A stretch of DNA of 32,000 nucleotides from an uncultured Opitutales bacterium (GCA_934613415.1 CAKTSY010000002.1:390001-422000), one strand, 5' to 3'. Positions 1,148-20,510 are shown, counted from the stretch's first letter. The notes: a model not told the origin generated them from the sequence alone. Made by a program: numbers and translations.

Positions 1148-3634
1148 TTATTTTGCCGATTTTACGGCAAGGGCTATTGCCTTTCGCACTCTTTCTGCAA
1201 AATCGGCGTAGCTTTCGTCTTTTTCGGGGCGCATTTGCGGCAGATATTGCACCGAAATTTTTGCCCTAAAGTCGGGCATATTTGCTCCAGCTTTCAAGGC
1301 TTCGTACGCTCCCGAAATTGCAACGGGCACAACGGGCACACCAAGCTCTTTTGCCAAAATGGCAAAGCTTTGTTTGAATTCCGAAACTTCGCCGTCGGGT
1401 GTTCTTGTGCCTTCGGGGAAAATTACAAGAGTTTTGTTTTGCCTTAAAACCTCGGCCGCCTTTTGTATGGATTCTTTTACGCCGCTTTTAATGTCCATAA
1501 TAATAACGTTGCTGCAGTCTGCATATTTCCTGATAAGCCCGCTTTTTATTATGCCCCTTATTTTTGCAAAAAAGTAGGTGTTGTAGAGCTTTTTTGTTGA
1601 AAGTTTTTGCACCGCAAACACGCCGTCGAAATAGCATTGGTGGTTTGCCGCCAAAATGGCGGCTCCTTGCGGAATGTTGTTTTGCCCAGAAACCTTTACA
1701 GAGTATAAAAGCTTTGAAATCGTCTTAAAAATTGCCGCCGAAATGCAGTGTAAAAAGTTTGGTTTGCAGAGCATAGCCGCAGGTTTTTCGGCTATTATTT
1801 CGTTCCAACTGGGCTCTTTAATTTGCGTGTTAAAAGTTTCGCCTTTTGCAAGGCTTTCTACATATTCGGCAAGTTTGCGCAAAGTGGGGTATTTTTCAAA
1901 GTCAGCCTCTGTAATTTCAATACCAAAGCTTTCCTTTATAAAGCATTGCATTGCAATTTTGCCAAGCGAGTCTAGCCCCAAGTCCATCTCCATATTCGCG
2001 TCGCACCTAACTTGCCCCGAAATTTGAGCCGCCAAAGTTTTCTTTAAAAGTTTGTATGTTTGGCTTTCGGGCTCGGGGTTGGCGGGCTTTTCTTCGTCGG
2101 CAATGCCGTTCAGCAAATCGGGCAGCATATGCCTTTTTAATTTGCCTATTCTTGTGCGCGGCAATTCGCTGTTTGTTATGGTAAATTTTATAATGCGCTT
2201 ATATACGGCGTTTTTTCTGTTATACGGCAAAATGGCGTTGTTTTGCACAAACTCCATTGCCAAGGCGGGCGGCATATCGGCATATTCGCCCGAAAGGCGT
2301 ATTATGGCCTGCAAAACACCATCTTTATAGCATATACCTATTTCCGAAATTTGCGGGCATTCCTTTTTTACAAGGGCTTCCAAATCGGAGGGGTTAAACT
2401 TTTTGCCGTTGGGCAAAACTATAATTTCCTTGCACCTGCCAGTAATGAAAATAAAGCCCTGTTCGTCTATATAGCCTAGGTCGCCCGTGTGCAGATAGCC
2501 GTCTACTATCGTTTGGGCGGTTTCTTGCGGGCGCTTGTAGTAGCCGCTTGTAATGTTGCTGCCCTTTACGATAATTTCGCCGTTGTCTATCTTTACGTCT
2601 ATGCCGTTTAGGGGCTGGCCTACCGAGCCCGCCTTTATATTGTCGGGGCGCGGGAACGAAATTATGGGGGAGGCCTCCGTCATTCCGTAGCCCTCGCACA
2701 TCTTAAAGCCGAGGGCTGTTAAGTCTGCAAAAACGGTTTTGTTAAGGGCGGCCCCGCCCGAAACGTAAAAGTTTGCCCCGCCGCCTAGCGCGGAATGTAT
2801 TTTGCCGAAAATCTTTTTTGAAAGCCAAAGTTTGTTTGCGGTTTTTGCCGCGGCAAACAAAAGCTTTGCAATTTTAGATTTCGAAATTTTACCCATTATG
2901 CCAGCATGCAAAGTTTCGTAAAAGCGCGGCACGCTTATAAAAAGGTGGATTTTGCGCGCTTTCATTGCCGCCGAAATGTCTTCGAAAGTAAGCGATTTTG
3001 GCATTACAATTTCGCCTTCTACATAAAGGGGCACAATAACCGTGCCCGCAATGGGCAGAATGTGGTGGAATGGCAGCATTGCAAAGCATTTTAGCCCTTT
3101 GGGGAAATATTGCGTTTTGCAAACGGCGTCTATATTCGTATATATATTTTTAAACGTAAGCATTACGCCTTTGGGCGCGCCCGTTGTGCCCGATGTATAC
3201 ACAATAAGGGCAAGGTCGTCTAAATCGCGCTCTACCGAAAAGTCACTGCCTACATCTAAAAGAGGCTGTTCGGAAATTTGCGAAATGTCTATAACGCGAA
3301 TGTTGCGGTTTGTTTTTGCAACGGCCGACTTTGCTTTTTCGAGATTTTCGGGCGAAGCGAAAACGGTTTCGGTGTCGCTGTCGGTCAATAAAAACTGCAA
3401 CTCGCTTTCGGTTGAATTTGCATCTATTGGAATTACCGAGGCTTTAGCCGCCCAAGCTCCCTGCAAGGCTGCAATCCATTCGGGGCTGTTTGCCGCAAAA
3501 ATTGCAACTTTAGAGCTGTTTTGGCAAAGCAAAGCCGCCTTTTTTATGTAAGAGCAAAGTGTTTTGTACGAATAAGTTTTGCCGCCGAAATACACGGCGT
3601 TTTTATTCGAACATTTTATCAGCGTTATTTTCAT
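1148..3634 (-). CDS. tri-domain fusion: fatty acyl-AMP ligase (AMP-binding) + acyl/peptidyl carrier domain + PlsC-type lysophospholipid acyltransferase (828 aa)
   Basis: AMP-binding signature YTSGTTGAPKGV (aa 146-157), TGDLGYIDEQGFIFITGR and a terminal IGKLKR. Carrier-domain motif DLGLDSL with Ser556 (codon 1967-1969). Acyltransferase HX4D motif NHQCYFD (His665, codon 1640-1642) and FPEGTRT (aa 739-745). Confidence 0.85.
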   Translation of the reverse strand: MKITLIKCSNKNAVYFGGKTYSYKTLCSYIKKAALLCQNSSKVAIFAANSPEWIAALQGAWAAKASVIPIDANSTESELQFLLTDSDTETVFASPENLEKAKSAVAKTNRNIRVIDISQISEQPLLDVGSDFSVERDLDDLALIVYTSGTTGAPKGVMLTFKNIYTNIDAVCKTQYFPKGLKCFAMLPFHHILPIAGTVIVPLYVEGEIVMPKSLTFEDISAAMKARKIHLFISVPRFYETLHAGIMGKISKSKIAKLLFAAAKTANKLWLSKKIFGKIHSALGGGANFYVSGGAALNKTVFADLTALGFKMCEGYGMTEASPIISFPRPDNIKAGSVGQPLNGIDVKIDNGEIIVKGSNITSGYYKRPQETAQTIVDGYLHTGDLGYIDEQGFIFITGRCKEIIVLPNGKKFNPSDLEALVKKECPQISEIGICYKDGVLQAIIRLSGEYADMPPALAMEFVQNNAILPYNRKNAVYKRIIKFTITNSELPRTRIGKLKRHMLPDLLNGIADEEKPANPEPESQTYKLLKKTLAAQISGQVRCDANMEMDLGLDSLGKIAMQCFIKESFGIEITEADFEKYPTLRKLAEYVESLAKGETFNTQIKEPSWNEIIAEKPAAMLCKPNFLHCISAAIFKTISKLLYSVKVSGQNNIPQGAAILAANHQCYFDGVFAVQKLSTKKLYNTYFFAKIRGIIKSGLIRKYADCSNVIIMDIKSGVKESIQKAAEVLRQNKTLVIFPEGTRTPDGEVSEFKQSFAILAKELGVPVVPVAISGAYEALKAGANMPDFRAKISVQYLPQMRPEKDESYADFAERVRKAIALAVKSAK

Positions 3635-3756: not shown

Positions 3757-4779
3757 TTAAGAAACTTTTCTTTTGCGCAAAAAAACGAAGGCTAATGCCG
3801 AAAGTGCGGCAAACAAAGCGCATTGTGCGGCTTCTGGAACCTCGTTTAAAACGCCGACACCGCTTAGGTCGAACCCTGGCGTGCCCGAGGTGGGATACGC
3901 ATCGTAAATCGGGCAGCCGCGGCTGTCTAAAGTTGTGCCGTCGCCTACAATGTCGCCAATTCTAACGTAGTTTACATTGTCTAAATCAAGATAGTTGTAG
4001 CTGTCTAGAAAATCGCGCATATATTCTGCCGAAAACATACTGCTAGATTTTGCGGTGTTTGTGTCGAAATCGTAGTGGTCTAATATATAGTTGTAAACAT
4101 CTGCCAATTCCTGCAGGTCGTAGCCTGTGCCGTATCCAATTCTATATTTCGAGCCTAGGTTGTATATCAACGTAGGGTCGTTTACGCCGCCGCCAACATC
4201 GCCGTCGGAGCCTACGGGTTTTGTGCCCAAATAGAAATTGGGGAACCTTACAAAGTGGGTGGCGTCGGTAGAAACTTCAACAAAAGCCAATTCCAAAAAA
4301 GTGTCGTTTAGGGCGTTTTCGAACACGCAAAAGTCGTAGCCTGCGCCGTTGCGTATTGCCTTGTCGAAACCCAAAATTATAGAGCCGCCGTCGCCCAAAA
4401 CAAGAACGTCGGAAGTGTTGCTTGCTGTTGGTTTGCCAAGGGCTTTGCTTGTGTCGGTCCAATAGCCAACGTCGTAGTCGGTTTCGCTGCCCGTAATGCC
4501 GCTGCCTTGAACGTACGAAACGCATTTTGTTGCCCACCCTTTAAAGGTGTATTTGGGTTTCATTCCCGAGCTTGTCCAAACCTTGCCGCTAACGTGAATA
4601 GCCGCGCTATTTGCGTCGCCTACGCCCGGGGCAAAGCCTGTAACATAGCCGTAGTTAGAGTCGTACGAATAGTATTCGTTTGCGGGTAAAAAGCAGTCTA
4701 TGCCCAAACTTTGCGCGTATAGCGGTTGAAATGCCGCCGCCAAAATTGAAAGGGCCGAAAATATATTTTTTGCCTTCAT
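3757..4779 (-). CDS. secreted PEP-CTERM-type anchored protein, unknown function (340 aa), third gene of the B12-riboswitch operon
   Basis: N-terminal signal peptide MKAKNIFSALSILAAAFQPLYAQ. C-terminus VPEAAQCALFAALSALAFVFLRKRKVS has the PEP-CTERM-like layout of motif, TM helix and basic tail. It starts 4 nt after the TonB-receptor stop. Confidence 0.7.
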   Translation of the reverse strand: MKAKNIFSALSILAAAFQPLYAQSLGIDCFLPANEYYSYDSNYGYVTGFAPGVGDANSAAIHVSGKVWTSSGMKPKYTFKGWATKCVSYVQGSGITGSETDYDVGYWTDTSKALGKPTASNTSDVLVLGDGGSIILGFDKAIRNGAGYDFCVFENALNDTFLELAFVEVSTDATHFVRFPNFYLGTKPVGSDGDVGGGVNDPTLIYNLGSKYRIGYGTGYDLQELADVYNYILDHYDFDTNTAKSSSMFSAEYMRDFLDSYNYLDLDNVNYVRIGDIVGDGTTLDSRGCPIYDAYPTSGTPGFDLSGVGVLNEVPEAAQCALFAALSALAFVFLRKRKVS

Positions 4780-4783
4780 TTAT

Positions 4784-6868
4784 TTAATAAGTTAAAGTTA
4801 TGCCTGCGCTGAATGTTCTGCCAATTCCGGGGTAGTAGCCCGACTTCCACGCGCACGAGATATAGCGTTTGTCTAGCAGGTTGTCGACTGCAACAAAGCA
4901 GCTTGCGTATTTGCAGATTTTGTAGTTTGCCCTAATCGACAAAAGCGCGTAGGCCGGAATTTTTGCCGTTGTGTTTTCGTAGTCGCTGCCAACATATTGG
5001 TCGCTTAAAAAGCTTGCCGAAAACGAGAGCGTAAGAGGCTCAATAGGGCGCACAAAGGCCGACAGCGTGCCCGAAAAATTCGGGACAAGCGGAATTTCGT
5101 TTCCGTCGTTTTCGCCCTCTAAAAACTGCGCTTTTACCGCCGAAAACATTGCGCTAAAGCCCCAAATTTTTGCGTCGTATTCTAGCGAAATATCGGTGCC
5201 AAAGCGCATTGTGGGGTCTAAATTTGTATTTAGCCATTCAAGCCCGCTAGGCGTAAGTGTTTGGTAATACGAAATTTCGTCTACAAGCATATTTAAAAAG
5301 AAACTTCCCGTAAGCTTCCAATTTTCGTTTTCGAATTTTACGCCGATTTCGTAGTTTTGCCCCTTTTCGGGAGAAAGGTCTTTGTTGAAGGGCACGCTTA
5401 AGCCGCCGTAGGTTTGATACGAGCAAACTTCGTCGGCAACGGGATAGTGGTAAATTTGGTCGAACTTAAAGAACAAGGCGGTGTTGTTTTCTACCAAGTA
5501 TGTTGCGCCGAAGTTTGCGCCAAAGCCAGTAAACGAAACGTGTTCTTTATAGGTATTTGCGGGGTTTATCTGCGGCGGCCAATCGGGGTTTGGCACTAAA
5601 ATTGTTGTGCCGCCCACCGAAATTTCCCTAAATTCGTCTAGCGAGTTTTGCTTAAATTCGGTATTGTCTACACTAAGGCGCGAAAAGCTTACGCGGCCTA
5701 CGGCGTTTAAAATAAGCTTTTCAAACAAAGTGCAGTCGCCGCCAATGTAGGGTTCGGCAGAAATTTGCGAAGCGTCGGCATAGCCCTTGTAGGGGGCAGA
5801 GCCGTCGTGCAAACGCTTAAAGTCTATATTGCTATATTCGCCGTCGAAGCCCACAAGAATGTGGGTGTTTTCGGAAGTTTCGAATTTGTATTTAGGTGTA
5901 AAAGAGGCGGTATACTGAAAGTTTTTTGTCTTGCCGCCCATATCCCAAAATATGTCCCTAAAATTCCAGCCAAGGCCTACGTCGCCTTCGCCTGAGGCAG
6001 ATTGCGTGTCTAAGCTTAAGCTATACGAGCCGTCTCTTGAATACGACTTTGAATTGTAGAAACTTTGCTGCGGGTTTATGTTGCATTGCGCCAAGGTTAA
6101 GGGGCCAGCATACATTGTGTTAGAGTCGGTATAATTGCCCGAAAAAACAAGAGAGTTGTTTTCGTTTATGTCGTAGCCAAGGCTTAGGTTTGCGCTTATA
6201 GCATCGCTTGCCGAGTTGTCGCGCCAGCCCGCCGAATTAAAATAGTTTAGCCCTATGTTTGCAAAAAAGTCGCCCTCTACAAGAGAGGCTTGCGCCGCCA
6301 AATCGTAGGTTTGGTACGAGCCGTATAGCCCTTTAAATACATACGAATTTTCTTTGGGGCGTTTTGTCTTTATTTTTATAACACCAGCCGACGCCGCCGA
6401 GCCATACAACGCCGTTTGCGAGCCCCTTAGCACCTCCATGCTTTCTATGCTAGAAAGGGGAATTTGCAGCCAGTTAATTGTCCCCATATCTGGGCGGTTT
6501 ATCCTGTGGTTGTCTACAACAACCATTATTCTTGTTTGCGAATTTTCGCCAAAGCCGCGCATTGCAAAGTCGCCCGATGCCATAGACGATGTTACGCTTC
6601 TAAAATTTAGATTTGCAAAGTTTTTAAGGGCTTCGGCAACGTTTGTGTATTGCGAATTTTCAAGCTTTTCGGCCGAAATTTGAACCGTGTTTGCGGGGGT
6701 TTCCAAATTGGGGGTTAAAAACCTGTAGGCCGTAGCGTATACGGTGTCTAAAGTGCCTGCATATTGCGCTTCGTTTGCTTGGGGTTTTCCCTGCGCAAAA
6801 ATGGTGTTTTGCGCGCAAAAAAGCGCAATCAATGCAAAATTAAAGCAACATTTAGACACCGTGCTCAT
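4784..6868 (-). CDS. TonB-dependent outer-membrane receptor, BtuB-like (694 aa)
   Basis: Signal peptide, then a TonB-box-like LDTVYATA. Plug-domain motif MEVLRGSQTALYGSAASAGVIKIKTK. C-terminal beta-barrel ends in GRTFSAGITLTY with an aromatic terminus. It sits downstream of a cobalamin riboswitch. Confidence 0.9.
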   Translation of the reverse strand: MSTVSKCCFNFALIALFCAQNTIFAQGKPQANEAQYAGTLDTVYATAYRFLTPNLETPANTVQISAEKLENSQYTNVAEALKNFANLNFRSVTSSMASGDFAMRGFGENSQTRIMVVVDNHRINRPDMGTINWLQIPLSSIESMEVLRGSQTALYGSAASAGVIKIKTKRPKENSYVFKGLYGSYQTYDLAAQASLVEGDFFANIGLNYFNSAGWRDNSASDAISANLSLGYDINENNSLVFSGNYTDSNTMYAGPLTLAQCNINPQQSFYNSKSYSRDGSYSLSLDTQSASGEGDVGLGWNFRDIFWDMGGKTKNFQYTASFTPKYKFETSENTHILVGFDGEYSNIDFKRLHDGSAPYKGYADASQISAEPYIGGDCTLFEKLILNAVGRVSFSRLSVDNTEFKQNSLDEFREISVGGTTILVPNPDWPPQINPANTYKEHVSFTGFGANFGATYLVENNTALFFKFDQIYHYPVADEVCSYQTYGGLSVPFNKDLSPEKGQNYEIGVKFENENWKLTGSFFLNMLVDEISYYQTLTPSGLEWLNTNLDPTMRFGTDISLEYDAKIWGFSAMFSAVKAQFLEGENDGNEIPLVPNFSGTLSAFVRPIEPLTLSFSASFLSDQYVGSDYENTTAKIPAYALLSIRANYKICKYASCFVAVDNLLDKRYISCAWKSGYYPGIGRTFSAGITLTY

Positions 6869-6881
6869 TCAATAAATCCCT

Positions 6882-7733
6882 TTATTTACGCCTGCGGTAT
6901 ATTGCCAATGCCAAAGCCAATGCGCCGAATATTGCAGCGTATGTAGAAGGTTCGGGAACCGCCGCCGACGAGTAGGTTAGGTTGTCCATAGCAAAATACG
7001 AGGGTGCATTTGCGCCCCATTCGCCGTAGTCGTCGGTAAGGGTTTTAAAGTAAAGCCCGTAAATGCCTTCGGCTTCGTTTAGGGAGGAAAGGTCTACGTC
7101 TATCCAGCTATTTGTAACGGTGTCGGCGTTCGAAAGCTCGCATTCAATAAAGTTTTCGGAAAATTCGCCCATAGAGTCTATCGCATAGATTAGCACTTTA
7201 AACGAGTGGTAGTTGCCTTCTTCGGTAAGGGTTTTTGTAAGGTAGTCGTAGCTAACAAGCGTGTTTGCCAATTGAATTGAGCTTACGTTTATTAAGTCCG
7301 AAAACAAAATCTGCGCCATATCCGAGCTTGAATAGCCCGAATTTGCCGAGGTATTTCCGTAGTAAATGCCGTAGTAGCCGCCTGCTACGCCGCTGCCGTC
7401 GGTGCCGGTAACGGAAGTATATTGTCCAAGCTCGCCGGCTTCCCAATATTTTGAAATATCTACGGTTTTGTCGGAGCAGTTCGACACGCTTATGCCGTCC
7501 CACGAATAGTACCAAACTCCGCTATATTGGCTGTTGCTCCAATTAAAGCCAACTTGCGGGTTGTACATATAGCCTTCGTAATAATGTACACCGCTGTCCG
7601 TTGCCGTTGTAGAACGGTTGGCGTCGTATACGGGAGCTGCCCCCGAAAAATCGAACACATCGGCACTAAGGCCTTGTGCGGTTAGCGTTAAGGCGGTTAA
7701 AGCCGCCGCAATAGATAGTAGTTTGTTTTTCAT
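6882..7733 (-). CDS. secreted PEP-CTERM-anchored protein, unknown function (283 aa), first gene after the B12 riboswitch
   Basis: Signal peptide MKNKLLSIAAALTALTLTAQG from the ATG at 7733; the track ORF starts 9 codons earlier at 7760. Canonical PEP-CTERM end VPEPSTYAAIFGALALALAIYRRRK. The mature region is rich in Tyr, Gly, Ser and Trp. Confidence 0.75.
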   Translation of the reverse strand: MKNKLLSIAAALTALTLTAQGLSADVFDFSGAAPVYDANRSTTATDSGVHYYEGYMYNPQVGFNWSNSQYSGVWYYSWDGISVSNCSDKTVDISKYWEAGELGQYTSVTGTDGSGVAGGYYGIYYGNTSANSGYSSSDMAQILFSDLINVSSIQLANTLVSYDYLTKTLTEEGNYHSFKVLIYAIDSMGEFSENFIECELSNADTVTNSWIDVDLSSLNEAEGIYGLYFKTLTDDYGEWGANAPSYFAMDNLTYSSAAVPEPSTYAAIFGALALALAIYRRRK

Positions 7734-7920
7734 TTGTTGTTTTATCTTTCCGGTTTGCATCGAAGCGGTCGATAATCCCTAAATTTTCCGAAAAGAAACA
7801 ACAAAACGCCGCCTGCAAAATTCAGCAAAAGCCAAAGTTGCATACGGCAAAATTTTGTCCATATATAAAGGGAGGTTAACCCAAAATATATTCATAGTTC
7901 CTCTTCGGGAAGTTAGGACA

Positions 7921-8076
7921 TTTTTAACGCGCGTCTTCTGGCTATTTCCCATTTCGCTTTTGGGGCAAAAACCGCCTTTTACCTTCCCGCATGTGCAGTG
8001 GCTTAAAAGGCGTGTCGGAAAATTACAGCGGCGAGACCGCGCCCGAATTTAACGGGACTTCCGTTTGCGTTAAAAA
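7921..8076 (-). promoter_or_regulatory. cobalamin (B12) riboswitch
   Basis: The minus-strand RNA reads UUUUUAACGC-AAACGGAAGUCCCGUUAAAUUCGGGCGCGGUCUCGCCGCUGUAA...AAGCCACUGCACAUGCGGGAAGGU...AGCCAGAAGACGCGC-GCGUUAAAAA. It has a 10-bp closing P1 helix (8067-8076 pairs with 7921-7930). It also has the conserved GGAAG...AAAUyC...GCGG...CGCCGCUGUAA core, the GCCACUG...GGGAAGG element and a B12-box-like AGCCAGAAGAC (7928-7943). Confidence 0.85.
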
Positions 8077-8352
8077 CATTCGCCCAAAGTTTTTTGCATT
8101 GGGCGCATAGTATGGTAAGAACTATTCGGGCAATCTTTTATTAGCGTTTGATTATGTCAAGCGCATATTTCTATTTTTAGGGCTGCATATTGGGGTAAAA
8201 TTCGCAAAATTGTTTGACATAGTTATTCGATTTTTATACAGAGTTTGCCCACAAATGAAATGAACTGCGTTTTACGCGCTTAAATGGAATTTTGGAGGAA
8301 ACCCGTTGCTCTTGGCTTATATAGCCGTTGGGCGTTGATGTTTTTACAGACT

Positions 8353-19172: not shown

Positions 19173-20435
19173 ATGAACAGCATAAACAACAAAGTTATAG
19201 CAGCCTCGCTAGGCTCGATTTTAACTATGGCTACTTTTGCCAATGCACAAGAAGCCGTACAAACTCTGGCAAAAGAGGAAGCGCCGCAGTCGTGGTACGA
19301 ACGCGACAGCCTCTTTTTGGCTTCGGCAACCGAAAGCGTTTCCGAAAAGACGGGCTTTACCCCCGCCCTTACCTGGACGGGAGAAGTTTGGGGCGACGTT
19401 TCCAATAAAAACAATATGAATTCGTTTGTAGACTCGCTCTTTACTATAGAAGTAGAGCAGGATTTGTCGGTATTGTCGGGCAAAGACAATATGGGCAGAA
19501 TCGGCGTTAGCGCATTCTACTACAACCAAACCCACGGCGGCGCGTTGGAAAATGTAGACTCTTCGCAAGGCTACATAAGCAACATTGTTGCCGGCGATAT
19601 GGCAAGGGTTTTCGAAATCTACTACGCCAACGAATTCGAAACAAAGGCTGGTACTTTCGGCTTTAGAATAGGCCAGCTTGCAGCCGACGAAGACTTTATG
19701 GGTATGGATTATTCCGACACATTCTTGAATTCGTCTTTCGGCGCAATGCCCAACATTGCTCCCGGCAATTTGTTCTCGCAATACAACGTTGCAACTCTTG
19801 GTTTGGTTGTATACTACACCTACGACAATTTCGACGCAACGTTCGGCGTATATAACGGCAACATCGGCGAAGACATTTCTTCGAACAACGGTTTCGACTA
19901 TAAAAATACTTTCGACACGGTTGCATTTTGGTATCAGTTCGGCTACAACTACAAAGTTGGCGGATTGGACGGCCGCGTAATGGTTGGTGGCAACTATCAC
20001 AGCGACCCGAGCAAGGCTAACTTCGAACAAGGCACAAAAAGCAACTTCTATTCGTTCTATGCAGGCATTCAGCAGGCACTGGTTAACGACGACGAAGGCA
20101 ACGCAAAATTCGGCGTATACGGCAGAGTTGGCTTCGTTCCCGATGCAGAACAATCGGACAACAACTTCTATGCCGACTTCGGCTTTAACTGGTTTGCCCC
20201 CATTCCCTGCAGAGAAAACGACGTATTTGCGGCAGGCTTTTCGGTTATAGAAAACGAAAGAACGGCCCGCGACGACTATGCGCACTACGAAGGTACTTTG
20301 GAAGTTACATACAGATGCCAAATTACCCCCGCAATCTCGTTCCAGCCCGATTTCCAAATTTACTTTAACCCGGCAACTCGCGACGACTGCGGCGCAGTAT
20401 ATGTAGCGGGCGCAAGGCTTGAAGTTGTATTCTAA
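19173..20435 (+). CDS. outer-membrane beta-barrel porin, OprB (carbohydrate-selective) family-like (420 aa)
   Basis: Signal peptide ...LTMATFANAQE, alternating aromatic/Gly beta-strand pattern and terminal ...ARLEVVF (C-terminal Phe). The OprB assignment rests on overall resemblance only. Confidence 0.6.
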   Translation: MNSINNKVIAASLGSILTMATFANAQEAVQTLAKEEAPQSWYERDSLFLASATESVSEKTGFTPALTWTGEVWGDVSNKNNMNSFVDSLFTIEVEQDLSVLSGKDNMGRIGVSAFYYNQTHGGALENVDSSQGYISNIVAGDMARVFEIYYANEFETKAGTFGFRIGQLAADEDFMGMDYSDTFLNSSFGAMPNIAPGNLFSQYNVATLGLVVYYTYDNFDATFGVYNGNIGEDISSNNGFDYKNTFDTVAFWYQFGYNYKVGGLDGRVMVGGNYHSDPSKANFEQGTKSNFYSFYAGIQQALVNDDEGNAKFGVYGRVGFVPDAEQSDNNFYADFGFNWFAPIPCRENDVFAAGFSVIENERTARDDYAHYEGTLEVTYRCQITPAISFQPDFQIYFNPATRDDCGAVYVAGARLEVVF

Positions 20436-20478
20436 AATTTCCTTTTTTGGTACGATTTTTATCTGTTGAACAATCTTC

Positions 20479-20510
20479 ATGCGCACTCTTTTAGGGTGCG
20501 CATTTTTTTT
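20479..20510 (+). terminator. rho-independent terminator after the porin gene
   Basis: Stem ATGCGCAC (20479-20486) / GTGCGCAT (20496-20503), running into T8. Confidence 0.65.

Follow-up and report, generated by a model that had tools for sequence, protein, structure and literature searches.

A cobalamin riboswitch-controlled operon of an Opitutales bacterium: a probable corrinoid uptake module with BtuJ-like and BtuH-like proteins carrying PEP-CTERM-type tails

Introduction

Competition for cobalamin (vitamin B12) shapes gut, marine and soil communities, and the relay of proteins that captures it outside the cell (BtuJ, BtuH, BtuG and BtuB) has so far been regarded as essentially an invention of gut Bacteroidota. 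In this study we describe an operon from a stretch of 32,000 nucleotides (nt) of an uncultured Opitutales (Verrucomicrobiota) bacterium (GCA_934613415.1, CAKTSY010000002.1:390001-422000). This whole stretch is called the window, and positions are counted from its first letter. The operon lies behind a cobalamin riboswitch and encodes a TonB-dependent receptor flanked by two accessory proteins, here called protein 1 and protein 3. A preliminary description of the locus, made from the sequence, had proposed an undescribed surface apparatus for corrinoid capture, analogous to that of Bacteroides but evolutionarily separate. It is suggested here that the operon is probably a B12-repressed module for corrinoid uptake at the outer membrane, and that it is homologous to the Bacteroides BtuJ/BtuH relay and not convergent with it, since protein 1 belongs to the BtuJ family and protein 3 is related to BtuH.

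The family DUF4465 has been identified with BtuJ: in B. thetaiotaomicron, BtuJ1 and BtuJ2 use an augmented beta-jellyroll to bind B12, six further divergent members, two of them from Verrucomicrobiota, bind B12 experimentally, and the tyrosine of the HI loop (GTPAYF/NTPAY) is conserved in 97% of members (PMC13398666). More than 70% of the family is lipoprotein-anchored, the non-lipoprotein members being described only as having 'periplasmic targeting', and the adjacency of DUF4465 to TonB-dependent receptors has already been published, as has B12 binding by Verrucomicrobiota members (PMC13398666). The same paper mentions, beside DUF4465, unnamed DUF families that resemble the Bacteroides accessory proteins in structure (PMC13398666), and for this reason the BtuH-like family described below may have been glimpsed earlier. 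The published homologues of BtuH comprise 37 from gut Bacteroidota and three from Firmicutes. In BtuH2, Asn399 contacts the B12 phosphate and is part of a Na/Ca site, His476, Tyr510/Trp511 and Trp577 contact the corrin, and Asp522, Ser582 and Glu584 are metal ligands.

PEP-CTERM proteins are usually discussed in the context of exopolysaccharides or biofilms, and the tails of the type IX secretion system (T9SS) route their cargo to the cell surface. Where PEP-CTERM proteins finally reside is poorly established, and in Akkermansia their signal was higher in intracellular than in outer-membrane fractions (PMC4960237). A full-text literature search returned nothing linking PEP-CTERM proteins with a cobalamin riboswitch, and only an unrelated case with a cyclic di-GMP (c-di-GMP) riboswitch.

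Results

The operon and its riboswitch

The cobalamin riboswitch that had been placed at 7921-8076 was confirmed by cmscan as RF00174, with a somewhat larger extent (7911-8087). The match is full-length (model positions 1-189 of 189) and reaches 56.3 bits against a gathering cutoff of 31.5, and no Rfam family other than RF00174 passes its gathering score anywhere in the 32 kb. Three minus-strand open reading frames (ORFs) lie 3' of it, at 6882-7760 (292 amino acids, aa), 4784-6868 (694 aa) and 3757-4779 (340 aa), separated by gaps of 13 and 4 nt; the tight packing noted earlier and the lengths given for the second and third proteins are the same in the ORF map. The features of the locus are as follows.

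7911-8087, minus strand: cobalamin riboswitch aptamer (RF00174; cmscan, 56.3 bits, E 1.3e-11)
7790-7848, minus strand: candidate expression platform, a terminator-like hairpin (7848-7808) followed by the U-rich tract GUUUUGUUGUUUCUUUU (minimum free energy fold)
6882-7760, minus strand: protein 1, a BtuJ-like DUF4465 protein (PF14717) with a Sec signal peptide, predicted to bind corrinoids
6885-6962, minus strand: PEP-CTERM tail of protein 1, VPEPSTYAAIFGALALALAIYRRRK (TIGR02595)
4784-6868, minus strand: TonB-dependent outer-membrane receptor of 694 aa with plug and barrel domains, a presumed corrinoid transporter
3757-4779, minus strand: protein 3, a BtuH-like protein of 340 aa in which a Sec signal peptide precedes a globular domain (about residues 30-312) and a degenerate PEP-CTERM tail (AlphaFold2, Foldseek, hhalign)
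3760-3840, minus strand: C-terminal tail of protein 3, VPEAAQCALFAALSALAFVFLRKRKVS, with motif, hydrophobic helix and basic cluster (sequence architecture)

About 150 nt separate the aptamer from the start codon, and this leader folds into the long hairpin listed above. The hairpin is present in the minimum free energy fold of 7725-7945 (minus strand), a region more stable than its shuffled counterparts (z = -3.25). Together with the U-tract it resembles an expression platform of the terminator type, and since a simple terminator scan did not flag it, it is treated as a candidate element only. The same scan gave no clear terminator 3' of the protein 3 gene.

Protein 1

Protein 1 had been described as 283 aa long and as having no tie to a characterised family, and both statements need revision. 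It measures 292 aa from the first ATG, the figure of 283 corresponding to the second ATG (7733), which is the start site in two more distant homologues. It also matches PF14717 (DUF4465) over residues 84-261 at 52.6 bits (gathering cutoff 25; E 9.4e-14). A sequence search of the PDB gave 4e9k (E 3e-4), and the seven best Foldseek matches of its model in the PDB are exclusively DUF4465, BtuJ1 and BtuJ2 structures (E 9e-9 to 1.5e-6), supporting the augmented beta-jellyroll fold of this family. The segment NAPSYF at residues 251-256 corresponds to the conserved HI-loop motif with its B12-binding tyrosine.

When protein 1 is compared with BtuJ1 and BtuJ2 of B. thetaiotaomicron and with D5EK51 of Coraliomargarita akajimensis (PF14717; PDB 9FCT, 9I2L and 9HMU), it shares with them the Pfam domain, the jellyroll fold, the HI-loop tyrosine, an N-terminal signal peptide and linkage to a riboswitch and a TonB-dependent receptor. 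It differs from them in that its signal peptide has no lipobox cysteine, and in having instead a PEP-CTERM tail that is conserved among its relatives. On sequence and model, protein 1 is thus assigned to the DUF4465/BtuJ-type jellyrolls and predicted to bind corrinoids.

Protein 3

Protein 3 had no match in Pfam and only a sub-threshold one in NCBIfam, and BtuH fragments searched in the same way show that the BtuH domain is likewise without a model in these collections. A direct sequence search against the PDB returned only noise. The AlphaFold model, for which 40 family members were used, is of high confidence (predicted local distance difference test, pLDDT, 92.6; predicted TM-score, pTM, 0.87). 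Its three best Foldseek matches in the PDB (E 2.7e-5 to 2e-4, probability 1.00) are 8blw_B (BtuGH) and 7biz chains A and B (BtuH2), the only proteins with a BtuH domain whose structures are solved. The next matches, to discoidin, CBM32 and F5/8-type C modules, are about 100-fold weaker. When the family profile was run against 177,635 PDB sequences it found BtuGH alone, at residues 369-473 of 8blw_B (E 0.003), a stretch that lies past the beta-propeller and is the BtuH-type domain. Comparison of the family with an alignment of BtuH domains by hhalign gave a probability of 94.5% (E 8e-8, 97 columns); the BtuH side of this comparison consisted of short gene fragments covering the N-terminal half, and it is for this half that the two families are linked at the level of sequence. 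The BtuH2 authors saw a similarly faint similarity, in that case to an alginate-lyase domain (AlyQ).

The register of BtuH2 was taken from a bridging profile, with a chain numbering offset of 100 that was checked at two landmarks. Asn399 of BtuH2 aligns with N155 of protein 3, which is invariant in all 40 family members and falls within a core motif common to both families, LG.GG.I...F...I.N..G.DF...N. Acidic residues are also invariant in the protein 3 family, at E163, E168, D221, D276, D285 and D304, and its conserved motifs include LG.GG.I, NG.G.DF.VFEN, ELAFVEVS.DG, YG.G.DL and DI.GDG...DS.G..IYDPYPT.G..GFDL.

BtuH1, BtuH2 and BtuGH (PDB 7BIZ; 8BLW chain B) are thus the best structural matches to protein 3, with an N-terminal half that is homologous by profile-profile comparison. 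In both families the gene stands behind a B12 riboswitch together with one for a TonB-dependent receptor, and fusions to PKD domains occur in both. The differences are also considerable. Identity in the Foldseek alignments is only 13-16%, protein 3 and its close relatives carry a helical insertion at about residues 222-261, and the anchor is a PEP-CTERM-like tail where that of BtuH is a lipid. Taken together, the sequence profiles and the model indicate that protein 3 is a remote homologue of BtuH's B12-binding domain, and it most likely binds corrinoids. A BtuK- or BtuG-type identity was considered for protein 3 and rejected, since those proteins fold as beta-propellers, whereas the model shows a beta-sandwich and helices.

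Residues 129-186 of protein 3 also show a weak similarity to NF033170 ('LIC_13355 family lipoprotein', Leptospira), which recurs in 28 of 40 family members. Judging by this similarity the Leptospira lipoproteins may share its core domain. The match was set aside as a clue to function, being weak and carrying none.

The BtuH-like family in other genomes

In searches at E<=1e-3 the protein 3 family comprises 2,652 clusters (90% identity) or 3,484 representatives (50% identity), 1,293 of the latter at E<=1e-30. A scan of one genome per species found at least 566 loci encoding a BtuH-like domain, and 80 of these, from different species, were kept. They come from Verrucomicrobiota, Kiritimatiellota, Planctomycetota, Beta- and Gammaproteobacteria, Desulfobacterota, Spirochaetota, Bacteroidota and others, a distribution that sets the family apart from the published BtuH homologues.

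The preliminary description had proposed looking for co-occurrence in related genomes, and the linkage of riboswitch, receptor, DUF4465 and BtuH-like genes does recur. In 58 of the 80 loci a same-strand riboswitch of the cobalamin clan lies upstream, as shown by full Rfam scans of all of them. These scans replaced a regular expression for the riboswitch core, which had matched in only 31 of 83 loci, or in 28 of the independent 80. Twelve of the 22 negative loci have less than 3.5 kb of upstream sequence, so that 58 of 68 assessable loci (85%) are positive. Homologues of the window receptor are present in 42 of the 80 loci and DUF4465-like genes in 33. With J for DUF4465, B for the receptor and H for the BtuH-like gene, the arrangements are as follows.

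J-B-H, as in the window: 14 loci
B-H: 11 loci
H-J-B: 6 loci
H and J in one polypeptide: 6 loci

DUF4465 is also the commonest partner domain, being fused to the BtuH-like domain in 12 of 66 diverse family representatives, and four of the 66 have the PKD plus BtuH-like architecture of BtuH2. A Bacteroidales protein (locus L077, 5941-7641) combines in one chain a BtuH-like domain, a DUF4465 domain (176.5 bits) and a T9SS tail. Single polypeptides with both domains are also found at L033, L039, L044, L045, L049 and L054. Those of Planctomycetota range from more than 1,100 to about 2,000 aa, the planctomycete relatives being very large proteins of many domains, in some cases including dockerin or PKD modules. 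Some family members have dockerin or cellulose-binding domains as partners.

The assessable loci that lack a detectable cobalamin riboswitch are mostly marine Puniceicoccaceae/Opitutales operons (L011, L014, L016, L022, L047, L065 and others) that keep the DUF4465, receptor and BtuH-like genes, and another form of regulation may operate in them. At L017, from Desulfobacula, there is no cobalamin riboswitch, and a c-di-GMP-I-GGC riboswitch (502-585, 64 bits) is located some 5.3 kb upstream of the BtuH-like gene. A metagenome-assembled genome labelled Akkermansia muciniphila (L035, 4983-10121) has a cobalamin riboswitch (53.7 bits) followed by a 697-aa protein with an N-terminal BtuH-like domain and then by a protein of 775 aa with a second, far weaker BtuH-like copy near its C-terminus (E 9e-7). 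Genes for 6S RNA lie within a few kb of B12 operons at two betaproteobacterial loci (L043, 8639-8823; L052, 4586-4768), a proximity that is probably coincidental.

The receptor

The 694-aa protein contains the Plug (PF07715, 79.6 bits) and TonB_dep_Rec_b-barrel (PF00593, 92.1 bits) domains and the motif LDTVYATA, which resembles a TonB box. Its earlier description as a BtuB-like TonB receptor holds in respect of these domains and of this motif. By score it is not BtuB, since it falls below every NCBIfam equivalog cutoff, including those for BtuB (TIGR01779, 100.6 against a cutoff of 599.7; NF007926, 73.5 against 836). Its best sequence matches in the PDB are YncD/PqqU (about 1e-21), followed by E. 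coli BtuB (6e-13). In comparison with E. coli BtuB and with the BtuB-BtuG pair of Bacteroides, the window receptor shares the plug, the TonB box and control by a cobalamin riboswitch, but it is not an equivalog of BtuB and its operon has no beta-propeller partner of the BtuG type.

The C-terminal tails

The C-terminal tails and the LDTVYATA motif quoted in the preliminary description are all present in the translations, and the signal peptides it gave to both flanking proteins fit the evidence. Its statement that both proteins are PEP-CTERM-anchored agrees with TIGR02595 for protein 1, whose tail scores 21.7 bits with that model (cutoff 16) and falls just short with Pfam PF07589 (20.5, cutoff 20.7). 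The tail of protein 3 is recognised by neither model. In an alignment of protein 1 with nine relatives the PEP-CTERM tail is present in all ten sequences and the VPE motif and RR cluster are invariant, one sequence reading VPEA. The orthologues of protein 3 end in VPEP or IPEP, and its own tail is for this reason taken to be a degenerate PEP-CTERM copy; three of the 40 family members match TIGR02595 at E<=0.01. Both tails have the build described for the PEP-CTERM/exosortase system (Haft et al. 2006, 2012), that is a motif, a transmembrane helix and a basic cluster, and proteins of this sort are abundant in the host phylum.

Across the related loci the type of tail follows lineage, with PEP-CTERM-like tails in Verrucomicrobiota, Proteobacteria and Planctomycetota, the T9SS Por_Secre_tail in Bacteroidales, and other long C-terminal extensions elsewhere. 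PEP-CTERM-like tails are found on 20 of 33 neighbouring DUF4465 proteins. At six loci of Desulfobacterota (L038, L040, L056, L058, L061 and L062) both accessory proteins end alike, in a linker rich in Gly or in acidic residues and then C-F-[IV]-x-x (for example GGCFVTAIFD, SGCFIETAAFGL, NTCFINCLK and GGGCFIRTLI), and from its sequence this tail looks like another sorting signal, distinct from PEP-CTERM and T9SS.

Surroundings of the operon

The closest genome match to the window is a metagenome-assembled genome of Opitutales, with a protein identity of 94%. The neighbours of the operon include genes for a GH2 glycosidase, tyrosyl-tRNA synthetase, rubrerythrin and an acyl-ligase/acyltransferase fusion, among others. 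As stated earlier, neither btuFCD nor a gene for an exosortase of the EpsH/Xrt kind was found in the window, and no other gene related to B12 or to exosortase was found there. The fusion, of 828 aa (1148-3634, minus strand; AMP-binding, PP-binding and acyltransferase domains), lies 122 nt downstream of the operon. Its counterpart in a near-identical metagenome contig (L001) consists of two ORFs of 684 and 174 aa, which suggests a frameshift or a strain difference. Elsewhere two ORFs on opposite strands are almost coextensive. That on the plus strand (19173-20435) encodes an OprB-family porin (126 bits), and that on the minus strand (19221-20486) has no family match and is probably spurious.

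Discussion

The arrangement described here is consistent with a B12-repressed module for uptake of corrinoids at the outer membrane, a reading that we consider probable. At low intracellular cobalamin the riboswitch would permit transcription, probably by blocking the terminator-like hairpin of the leader, and the three proteins would be made from the de-repressed operon. Proteins 1 and 3 would be exported via Sec and, since both carry PEP-CTERM-type tails, would probably be processed by an exosortase and displayed at the cell surface, which is the working site of their lipid-anchored Bacteroides homologues. There they could bind corrinoids and hand them over to the receptor for import energised by TonB, the periplasmic and inner-membrane steps (BtuF/BtuCD or an equivalent) presumably being encoded outside the window. 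The earlier idea of a surface apparatus for corrinoid capture fits the riboswitch-controlled operon, the receptor, the signal peptides and the PEP-CTERM-style tails. The system is homologous to the BtuJ/BtuH/BtuB relay of Bacteroides (PMC13616437, PMC8941943) and would work alike, but without BtuG and without lipid anchors.

Several observations weigh against this reading. The sequence of the receptor is no nearer to BtuB than to YncD/PqqU. The AlphaFold model of protein 1 is only moderate (pLDDT 66.5), and the Foldseek TM-scores of protein 3 are low (0.32-0.35), partly because of extra segments in both query and targets. The PAPGQF motif of BtuH, in which Gln333 and Phe334 contact the ribose, is not conserved, the aligned segment of protein 3 being YVQGSGI. 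A profile of the C-terminal half of the family found no BtuH among the PDB sequences, so that homology with BtuH is drawn from sequence for the N-terminal half and from the fold for the whole domain. The tail of protein 3, with its VPEA motif, did not match the PEP-CTERM models at E<=1, and an exosortase was not found in the 32 kb of the window, which is the extent of that search. In ten loci no cobalamin riboswitch was detected although at least 3.5 kb of sequence upstream was available, and five of these were still negative when rescanned at E<=0.1.

The main alternative concerns topology. It is possible, though unlikely, that the tails remain unprocessed and tether both proteins in the inner membrane facing the periplasm, where, downstream of the receptor, they would serve as acceptors in the manner of BtuF instead of scavenging at the surface. 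The lack of btuF from operon and window, the lack of an exosortase from the window, the failure of the protein 3 tail to match the models and the poorly documented location of PEP-CTERM proteins, including the Akkermansia fractions (PMC4960237), would all be in keeping with such an arrangement. However the homologous domains of B. thetaiotaomicron are surface-exposed lipoproteins, the Bacteroidales relatives have T9SS tails that direct them to the surface, and the giant multidomain planctomycete relatives, some with dockerin or PKD modules, have the look of extracellular proteins.

A second possibility, which we consider improbable, is that protein 3, as a generic module of the discoidin/CBM32 kind, serves carbohydrate binding or adhesion and does not bind corrinoids, its likeness to BtuH being one of scaffold only. 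The lower-ranked fold matches, the missing PAPGQF contact motif, the C-terminal half without a sequence link to BtuH and the dockerin or cellulose-binding partners of some relatives could be read in this way. Against this, the highest fold matches are specifically to the two solved BtuH-domain proteins, the equivalent of Asn399 is invariant, DUF4465 is the most frequent fusion partner (12 of 66), and 58 of 80 loci, from many phyla, have a cobalamin riboswitch upstream. It is very unlikely, too, that what the receptor imports under B12 control is not a complete corrinoid but cobalt, a precursor or some other cofactor, and that the flanking proteins serve that substrate. The best solved relatives of the receptor by sequence are indeed YncD/PqqU, and its scores lie below the equivalog cutoffs for BtuB. 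DUF4465 proteins, however, have cobalamin itself as their ligand (PMC13398666), and the linkage of riboswitch, receptor and DUF4465 is the published signature of B12 transport loci. The first proposal for this locus, surface scavenging of B12 that evolved independently of the Bacteroides accessory proteins, can draw on the unlike anchoring chemistry (PEP-CTERM against lipobox), the absence of a BtuG propeller gene from the operon and the lack of a Pfam or NCBIfam assignment for protein 3, but it is hardly credible in view of the DUF4465 score of protein 1, which is double the Pfam gathering cutoff, of the ties of protein 3 to BtuH both in fold and in profile-profile comparison, and of the Bacteroidales members within the protein 3 family itself.

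The components of the operon are homologous to known ones and the system as a kind is not undescribed, the term being apt for the protein 3 family and for the mode of anchoring. What is new lies in the use of PEP-CTERM anchoring, with T9SS tails in the Bacteroidales relatives, and in the reach of BtuH-like proteins far beyond Bacteroidota. The profiles and the model suggest that the BtuH superfamily is much wider than has been reported and largely unannotated. It is an evenly balanced question whether the further generalisation holds, namely that protein 3 represents a large, unnamed, pan-bacterial branch of this superfamily (about 3,500 clusters at 50% identity) which together with DUF4465 forms a portable two-domain module for B12 capture, delivered to the surface by interchangeable tails, whether PEP-CTERM/exosortase, T9SS, the 'GCF[IV]' tail of Desulfobacterota or lipidation.

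Should these readings be true, extracellular scavenging of B12 of the BtuH/BtuJ type would be a general bacterial strategy and not a speciality of Bacteroidota, and exosortase sorting would have a role in micronutrient acquisition, which suggests a physiological class of cargo for the poorly understood PEP-CTERM/exosortase system. The BtuH-like family would offer new scaffolds for the capture of B12, and through it thousands of 'hypothetical' proteins of the B12 regulon could be given an annotation.

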